From NCBI RefSeq assembly GCF_055900595.2, contig NZ_CM148325.1: a DNA stretch of 64,000 nucleotides. One strand, written 5' to 3'. The notes beneath the pieces were generated by a model, which saw only the letters and a program-made list of their open reading frames with translations, searched no databases and was not told where the DNA came from. The translations under genes and the position numbers were made by a program. Shown one piece after another: positions 48,702 to 49,399 of this stretch; positions within the stretch are counted from its first letter, which is position 1; every line of letters starts with the position of its first letter.

Positions 48702-49399
48702 ATATAATGCTGCATCTATCACCGGATACAATGCTTTGCTGAACGCAGCCTGAGCCTGTACATAACCTTGTCATTTCCTGACTTTAATATGCTCATTCCA
48801 ACATCGGAAGAAAGTTAAATTATGGACGACAAACCATGCAGGCTCTGGCTAATGAACTAGCCAATAAACTCAAAACACTAAAAATCTCGGCCAGCTCAAA
48901 AAAGTCAGTGTAATGACTTCTTCTGACAGCAACAGGTGATGAAAAACTAGTCCCGCATTACCGGCATTCCCGTCAACCACCAGGGGTTCCGGCCTGGCAT
49001 CGCCCGAAAATATTCCCCCACACATCCTGCCGCGCTGAAATAGCCCATAGAGAACCAATACGCGTATCAGACTGCCCTGTATATGTAGTGGCGTTTCATC
49101 CGCCTGTAACACCGGATAAATGAGCGATTTCTTATAGTTATTCTTTTGCTTAATAACGATTATTTCCGGGTCGTTCGCTCTCGTATTTTCTTTAATACGT
49201 CTACGCTGCCTGGGCCGTAATAAAACTTGTTCAGATCTGTTACGCATGTACCAGACCCGACACGGCATTTCTGACCCGGGAAAAAGTCAACGATGAGTCG
49301 TTATATCAGCGCAAATGACGTTTTGTGGCACCGTTGCGGTGACCACATTCACGTCTTCGGCGCTGCCAGAGGATATTTATTTCAAGGATGCATAGCATT

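Follow-up and report, generated by a model that had tools for sequence, protein, structure and literature searches.

What fills the gap between cvrA and an LRR gene in Escherichia coli: probably an IS1414-like remnant and a noncoding leader at the left end of an island

Within the 64,000-nucleotide stretch of E. coli chromosome that was analysed (called the window throughout), the genes are arranged in the order ycgR-emtA-ldcA-cvrA-gap-LRR-dadX-dadA, and the window is 100% identical to strain EC42405. The question raised by this locus is what the gap between cvrA and the LRR gene contains and why it is so long. A sequence-only reading had described a spacer of about 700 bp, and this is correct: the cvrA ORF comprises 578 codons, which is the K-12 length, and stops at 48701, while the LRR ORF starts with the ATG at 49400, leaving 698 bp. 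This ATG is the start used by RefSeq and is kept across alleles, in contrast to an in-frame ATG at 49388, which is not conserved and reads ATA in other alleles.

The gap very probably represents the noncoding left part of an E. coli island of ~2.2 kb, consisting of an IS1414-like wreck and a leader and containing no functional protein gene. It is long because it is composite, with 36 bp of cvrA flank being followed by an IS wreck of ~215 bp and by ~430 bp of island-specific DNA. Its parts and the gene behind it are:

48702-48737, no strand assigned: part 1, the ordinary cvrA 3' flank, which aligns with K-12 and B2 strain 81009
48752-48967, plus strand: part 2, a decayed IS1414-like left end, recognized by blastn against IS1414 and an Enterobacter IS256-family element
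48968-49399, plus strand: part 3, island-specific noncoding DNA confined to the locus, the presumed leader/promoter region of the LRR gene
49384-49388, plus strand: Shine-Dalgarno-like AAGGA, read from the sequence, 11 nt upstream of the LRR ATG at 49400-49402
49400-50800, plus strand: LRR gene encoding 466 aa, its LRR domain being of the IpaH/SspH/SlrP type and followed by an acidic repeat at the C-terminus

In the RefSeq annotation of the identical genome, two CDSs for hypothetical proteins lie within the gap or reach into it: 48573-48731 and 48870-49247, both on the minus strand. Furthermore, cvrA (window 46965-48701; L001 2264-3934) is flagged in EC42405 as a pseudogene with a 'missing C-terminus', and the same flag is found in most of the island-bearing genomes fetched. 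The cvrA ORF of the window is full length and is unlike that of K-12 at few C-terminal residues only. This flag looks like an annotation artefact tied to the overlapping YmgM-like CDS.

The limits of the island were obtained by comparison with the B2 strain 81009. Here, cvrA and dadX are spaced by 56 bp (L017 3103-3158), and the interval holds an intact palindrome with a 13-bp stem, CGCTGGATACGAC-GCTG-GTCGCATCCAGCG (fold z = -3.9), which resembles a REP element when judged by the REP consensus. REP elements are known insertion targets. The homology between the window and 81009 ends at 48735 and restarts at 50962, and in the alignment to 81009 the two halves of this hairpin lie far apart:

~48720-48732, no strand assigned: left half of the REP-like hairpin, within the cvrA flank
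~50944-50953, no strand assigned: right half of the REP-like hairpin (ATCCGG)

Since the homology to B2 breaks and returns at these positions, the island appears to span ~48738-50943 and to lie within an old REP-like hairpin that separated cvrA from dadX, two convergent genes. Beyond its first 36 bp, the gap would be the left end of this island. Because the hairpin is intact in 81009, the one B2 strain compared, its arrangement can be read as the ancestral, unoccupied state of the site; alternatively, the 56-bp spacing may stem from a precise deletion in B2. Both the island of the window and its stump in K-12 sit within the palindrome of 81009.

The remains of a mobility gene had been suggested as one possible content of the gap, and the search for IS remnants did reveal them. 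IS256-family, IS1414-like fragments with 79–81% identity were found, which turn 48752-48967 into a decayed left end of such an element and the 25-codon frame given as an example of a short frame into a frameshifted transposase N-terminus. The features of this relic are:

48752-48876, plus strand: IS left end with inverted repeat, leader and transposase start, 80–81% identical to IS copies
48910-48967, plus strand: second IS fragment from the interior of the transposase gene, 81% identical to nt 398-455 of the Enterobacter IS
48822-48860, plus strand: 12-codon ORF MDDKPCRLWLMN, closed by a stop, which opens at the relic transposase start codon (from the sequence)
48836-48913, plus strand: 25-codon frame MQALANELANKLKTLKISASSKKSV, the frameshifted transposase N-terminus
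48748-48850, no strand assigned: 12-nt inverted repeat AGCCTGAGCCTG / CAGGCTCTGGCT, bracketing the IS end and the transposase start

By blastn, the first fragment corresponds to nt 49-176 of the annotated IS1414 on pE16-3 (80%) and is similar to the Enterobacter IS256-family element (80–81%). The terminal inverted repeat of the relic begins with GAGCCTGTACATA; the left inverted repeat is thus present, with the bases from 48752 onward (GAGCCTGTACATAACCTTGTCATTTCC) aligning to the IS1414 left repeat GAGCCTGTACATAGATTTGTGTAATTGCC, and the relic end of ~100 bp is 84–85% identical to the IS1414 end. Within the second fragment, 48930-48967 equals nt 391-428 of IS1414 (79% identity, blastn), and 48910-48967 also matches annotated IS256-family transposase genes on plasmids. 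Between the two fragments, ~195 bp of the IS are absent. A distant plasmid search with the gap returned ~600 records, which match only ~48742-48911 at ~80% and are distributed across the Enterobacterales (Escherichia, Klebsiella, Salmonella, Shigella, Enterobacter and others). In these plasmid copies the matched piece is the start of an insertion sequence, whose gene belongs to Pfam Transposase_mut (IS256 family). The equivalent bases of K-12 are annotated as 'IS1414 (partial)'.

The transposase ATG at 48822 points toward the LRR gene and the first ~18 codons are retained, with a 1-nt deletion at ~48836 shifting the frame after codon 4. The 25-codon frame had been placed at 48838..48915; it does exist, only its coordinates are off by 2. 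The frame starting with MQALANELANKLKT continues the transposase N-terminus MD(D/E)KQLQALANELAKNLKT in a shifted reading frame, and tblastn pairs QALANELANKLKT with the transposase residues LQALANELAKNLKT. Other alleles without the frameshift have ORFs of 53-65 codons from the same ATG, which are annotated as hypothetical.

The remainder of the element is missing. No match to the IS1414 right end with ≤3 mismatches was found anywhere in the 64-kb window, and blastn of 48601-51000 against the whole IS returned only the two left-hand pieces. An intact Mutator-type DDE transposase of ~400 codons is absent, only ~18 N-terminal (frameshifted) and ~19 internal codons being left, and none of the gap frames tested gave a Pfam match. 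Altogether ~215 of ~1,300 bp of the IS remain, including neither a catalytic region nor an astA (EAST1) segment. Since the right end and the catalytic domain are missing, the relic is, judged from its sequence, a fossil of an IS1414-like (IS256-family) element that would be unable to move.

A further feature of the relic is its 12-nt inverted repeat, which is formed by the IS end and transposase codons 6-9 and gives a stable fold-back (fold z-score -4.8 for 48740-48859; -2.5 as DNA). The 12-mer AGCCTGAGCCTG is also the junction of the K-12 deletion allele.

It can be asked whether the relic still acts as an expression module, in which a ribosome-binding site and the ATG at 48822 give rise to a short peptide, an upstream ORF or a short transcript affecting the LRR gene. 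The same module of a younger IS1414 starts YmgM in K-12, a protein detected by tagging, and in the commoner alleles the frame from the ATG is open for 53-65 codons. In the window, however, a stop ends this frame after 12 codons, the Shine-Dalgarno sequence is weaker (GAAAG vs GAAGG) and, according to the alignment, a 2-nt deletion has shortened the distance between the putative -35 and -10 elements of the IS leader. Furthermore, the fold-back would pair the region just past the ATG, and the frame varies freely between alleles. An active module is therefore improbable, and a silent remnant is the preferred reading of part 2.

YmgM of K-12 is a small protein of 67 aa, which was detected by chromosomal SPA tagging (VanOrsdel et al. 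2018, PMC6001520). At this K-12 locus (L003 4189-4464; NC_000913.3 1240188-1240463; window counterpart 48573-48850) its frame reads antisense through the cvrA 3' end, and the ribosome-binding site, the ATG and the first 8 residues (MDDKQLQA) come from the inverted IS1414 fragment. The related frame of the window is:

48573-48731, minus strand: YmgM-like ORF of 52 codons with a TTG start, antisense to the cvrA 3' end, with its first 10 codons in the gap

This frame is limited to a TTG start because the IS fragment faces the other way in the window.

In K-12 MG1655, the feature 'IS1414 (partial)' of the dadX-cvrA intergenic region (1240188-1240289) is an inverted 102-bp IS1414 end, and the last ~22 LRR codons are kept directly abutting it. 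This piece is identical to present-day plasmid IS1414 at 101 of 102 positions and 84% identical to the relic of the window. A simple inversion of the window IS piece was considered as the origin of the K-12 allele and rejected on these numbers (99% against modern IS1414, 84% against the window). The most economical explanation is that a second, younger IS1414 inserted inversely in the LRR 3' end and that a deletion followed. This deletion would have occurred between direct repeats matching at 11 of 12 positions, of which AGCCAGAGCCTG belongs to the younger copy and AGCCTGAGCCTG to the border between the old IS and the flank.

Among complete E. coli genomes, ~61% (3308 of 5426) have the junction of K-12 or one closely resembling it, whereas the island is carried by ~15% (834-837 of 5426). 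O157:H7 shows a different, simple deletion of ~48815-50689, in which the old relic is kept, and other alleles carry insertions of IS66, IS629 or IS3. The locus is a slowly eroding island that has been hit repeatedly by insertion sequences.

The sequence-only reading had further stated that only short frames exist in the gap and that none of them is a convincing gene. The former is refuted by the minus strand, the latter is supported. The frame concerned is:

48870-49268, minus strand: 132-codon ORF, RefSeq hypothetical WP_165289471.1, annotated from 49247

This could be a real, strain-restricted gene, divergent from the LRR gene, which encodes an accessory protein or chaperone for the LRR product. 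With 132 codons it is longer than any ORF in 98% of the dinucleotide-shuffled versions of the gap, PGAP annotates 48870-49247 on the minus strand, and related ORFs of 97-139 codons are annotated in four other alleles. On the contrary, only four E. coli fragments from the same locus matched it among 5.8 billion proteins, and neither this ORF nor any other gap frame has a Pfam or NCBIfam match, which also leaves the earlier suggestion of a chaperone remnant without a counterpart in these databases. The ORF failed every coding test run. Its 57 variable sites among six alleles are spread evenly over codon positions 1, 2 and 3 (22/19/16), with no third-position bias, and the frame is reduced to 50 codons or unannotated in alleles L002, L008 and L012, and deletions disrupt it in ST2747 and O78 strain 3. 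The final 33 codons are antisense to the IS fragments; the frame can therefore not predate the IS and is an artefact of the junction. In addition, the predicted protein is strongly basic, unlike type III chaperones, which are acidic. A genuine gene is for these reasons extremely improbable, and the 132-codon ORF is judged to be a chance frame. An IS66 transposase relic on the minus strand was also considered, since 'LQADETPL' and 'VVDGNAGNAG' resembled IS66 DDE motifs, and was rejected: tblastn with IS66 TnpC gave a best E of 0.14 with scattered matches, and there was no Pfam match. Both RefSeq hypothetical proteins of the gap are best read as non-genes, and there is no functional protein gene anywhere in the gap.

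What is left to be explained is part 3. Comparison with related genomes sets the flank, 48702-48737, which is shared with K-12 and 81009, apart from 48968-49399, which is confined to the island-bearing E. coli locus. Of 5426 complete E. coli genomes, 837 have the latter, each as a single copy at this locus. Plasmid and phage searches gave no match to 48968-49399 outside the locus, no paralogous copies of the gap exist in the window or elsewhere in E. coli genomes, and the upstream regions of the pINV ipaH genes have no nucleotide similarity to the gap. A species scan with the LRR protein as query against 100,044 species genomes (one per species), which detects close relatives only, returned a single contig (L013, JAIJJM010000586.1, 'MAG: Collinsella sp.', 2,088 bp). 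This contig is 95.6% identical to the E. coli cvrA-LRR interval and is probably E. coli binning contamination.

Natural alleles reveal how much of part 3 can be lost. ST2747 lacks 48943-49108 and 49225-49243, O78 strain 3 lacks 49143-49330, and in both the LRR ORF is full length; smaller deletions in part 3 are found in IAI39 and S. flexneri. The only bases of part 3 present in every allele examined are 49109-49142 (34 bp) and the last 69 bp, 49331-49399. Most of part 3 is thus dispensable, since natural alleles with an intact LRR ORF delete blocks of 166-188 bp. In comparison to the most divergent of the alleles compared, 49101-49400 is 92–93% identical and the LRR coding region 72–91%. This better preservation of the proximal gap could reflect regulatory constraint or merely diversification of the gene.

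The LRR protein itself shows partial NCBIfam matches to the LRR regions of SlrP and SspH2, far below cut-off, and a match to Pfam LRR_4, and it has no NEL ubiquitin-ligase domain. Full-length relatives (E ≤ 1e-100) occur in E. coli and Shigella only. The LRR allele classes are deeply divergent, with 72–91% nucleotide identity per 100-bp window against L012, L014, L016 and L020, and the encoded proteins are ~72–75% identical with lengths of 437-486 aa, the alleles being mosaics of the two classes. The cvrA and dadX flanks of the same alleles are 91–100% identical over 100-bp windows. Such a pattern points to diversifying selection, to alleles of ancient origin or to acquisition from another source. 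At the LRR 3' end (50525-50674), 9-nt (3-residue) periodic repeats, CTGGAGGAC and following, encode LEDLE-type acidic repeats, whose copy number probably accounts for the length variation of the LRR alleles. At the right end of the island, ~35 nt past the LRR stop, an inverted repeat is located at 50835-50865 (AATAGTGTCCAT and ATGGGCACTAT), which is retained in K-12 and may be an LRR terminator or processing site.

Several searches for regulatory signals were performed. Neither strand of 48000-51500 matched an Rfam 15 covariance model at E ≤ 1, so that the small RNA proposed earlier finds no support there. No intrinsic terminator, defined as a GC-rich hairpin followed by a T run, was found on the plus strand in 48500-51100. 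Scans of the gap for sigma-70 promoters, by consensus and by weight matrix, gave nothing above background; the best candidate, TTCACG-18-GATATT ending at 49377, scored 7.2 bits, whereas the best matches in pieces of the window of the same size have a median of 8.8 bits. A special regulatory leader, as had been envisaged, gains no support, and neither does the idea of a long leader typical of silenced effector genes: the length is largely IS debris, blocks of the remainder are deleted in natural alleles that keep the LRR ORF, and with a GC content of 0.44-0.50 over most of the gap it is only modestly AT-rich. Silencing of the locus by H-NS is possible and is not indicated by the composition of the gap.

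Two elements of part 3 deserve closer attention:

49308-49364, plus strand: extended imperfect hairpin of 5+5+9 pairs with the palindrome TGTGGCACCG..CGGTGACCACA, window z-scores of ~-3
49121-49137, plus strand: MxiE-box-like 17-mer TGAGCGATTTCTTATAG, a weak lead only

The hairpin lies 35-90 nt upstream of the LRR start codon. It is conserved across 7 alleles, and O78 strain 3 has lost the left half of it. No compensatory change was observed in the 7 alleles, and since these are too similar to each other, the conservation is uninformative.

An MxiE box was searched for because the LRR domain is of the IpaH/SspH type. In MxiE boxes, G6, T10, T12 and A16 are essential, and natural functional boxes contain ≤3 mismatches, while the ospG box with five mismatches is inactive (PMC3299695). 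The best site in the gap, TGAGCGATTTCTTATAG, carries all four essential positions and differs from the consensus GTATCGTTTTTTTANAG at five (1, 2, 4, 7 and 11). On this basis, part 3 might contain a secretion-responsive promoter, with an MxiE/InvF-type box at 49121-49137, a -10-like GATTAT 20 nt downstream of it and a stabilising 5' UTR of ~230 nt including the 49308-49364 hairpin, and the LRR protein would be a silent type III substrate. Beside the four essential positions and the type of the LRR domain, it speaks for this reading that the 17-mer is invariant in all alleles examined and lies within the sole internal block, 49109-49142 (34 bp), that both large-deletion alleles keep. Furthermore, the island is absent from 81009, the one B2 strain examined, and icaR, icaT and yccE have been reported to be largely absent from B2 (PMC9241512, PMC9769918). 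If true, the LRR gene between cvrA and dadX would add to the 'ancient chromosomal' substrates of Shigella-type or ETT2-type secretion systems, and like icaR, icaT and yccE it would be silent in ordinary E. coli.

However, five mismatches are more than natural functional boxes have, and matches this good occur 12 times in 128 kb (both strands of the window), corresponding to ~0.07 expected on the gap strand. The S. flexneri copy of the 17-mer is identical and hence no nearer to the consensus, and O78 strain 3 deletes the putative -10 and the UTR. The 41 genes with a Congo-red/MxiE response in S. flexneri 2457T (PMC9769918) do not include the LRR gene, whose copy in this strain may not be intact. 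Taken together, a secretion-responsive promoter is highly improbable.

In the same strain, dadX and dadA are upregulated 2.2-2.6-fold with Congo red in the wild type and 1.4-1.7-fold in an mxiE mutant (PMC9769918 Table S1). This response is modest, partly MxiE-independent and has nothing to do with the gap. That dadX responds by read-through from the LRR gene was considered and rejected: dadA changes alongside it, and part of both responses persists in the mxiE mutant, so that the dadAX operon itself responds.

For the preferred reading, a noncoding leader behind an IS remnant, the ~430 bp of island-specific DNA would carry whatever signals the LRR gene uses. Transcription of the gene is probably weak, coming from cvrA read-through, from a weak proximal promoter within the last ~70-290 bp of the gap, which are its best-conserved part, or from both. 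Such weak transcription is suggested because the old hairpin is split and the plus strand has no terminator-like site from cvrA to the LRR gene. On this view, the LRR 5' UTR would include the conserved hairpin at 49308-49364.

The gap is thus ordinary, an IS remnant and a leader with no new mechanism, and it has little biological weight and a modest value for annotation. Two RefSeq hypothetical proteins can be revised, and an IS1414-like relic that is unannotated can be added. In addition, the dadX-cvrA intergenic region of K-12 is explained as the stump of a deleted LRR island, and YmgM, whose start codon stems from an IS1414 fragment, illustrates how a new small ORF can arise from what is left of an IS.

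The gap can be compared with several known systems. With the MxiE-box promoters and long 5' UTRs of the ipaH genes and of icaR, icaT and yccE, the window shares the IpaH-type LRR domain, a T-rich 17-mer with the four essential positions and a long potential UTR, but its 17-mer has five mismatches and no MxiE dependence has been reported. With the IS1414/IS256 family, the left repeat, the leader, the start and N-terminal codons of the transposase and one internal piece are homologous (79–81%), although the relic has lost the right inverted repeat, the DDE region and astA. In the case of ymgM, the frame 48573-48731 on the minus strand is homologous and its C-terminal 36 residues are identical to those of K-12 YmgM, whereas it begins at a TTG without the IS-derived start module MDDKQLQA. 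The 'IS1414 (partial)' of K-12 likewise retains the left ~100 bp at the same locus, from the inverted repeat to transposase codon 8, and joins the cvrA flank at the 12-mer AGCCTGAGCCTG as the relic of the window does. In contrast, the K-12 piece is inverted and younger, while the window has the older, more decayed relic together with an intact LRR gene.
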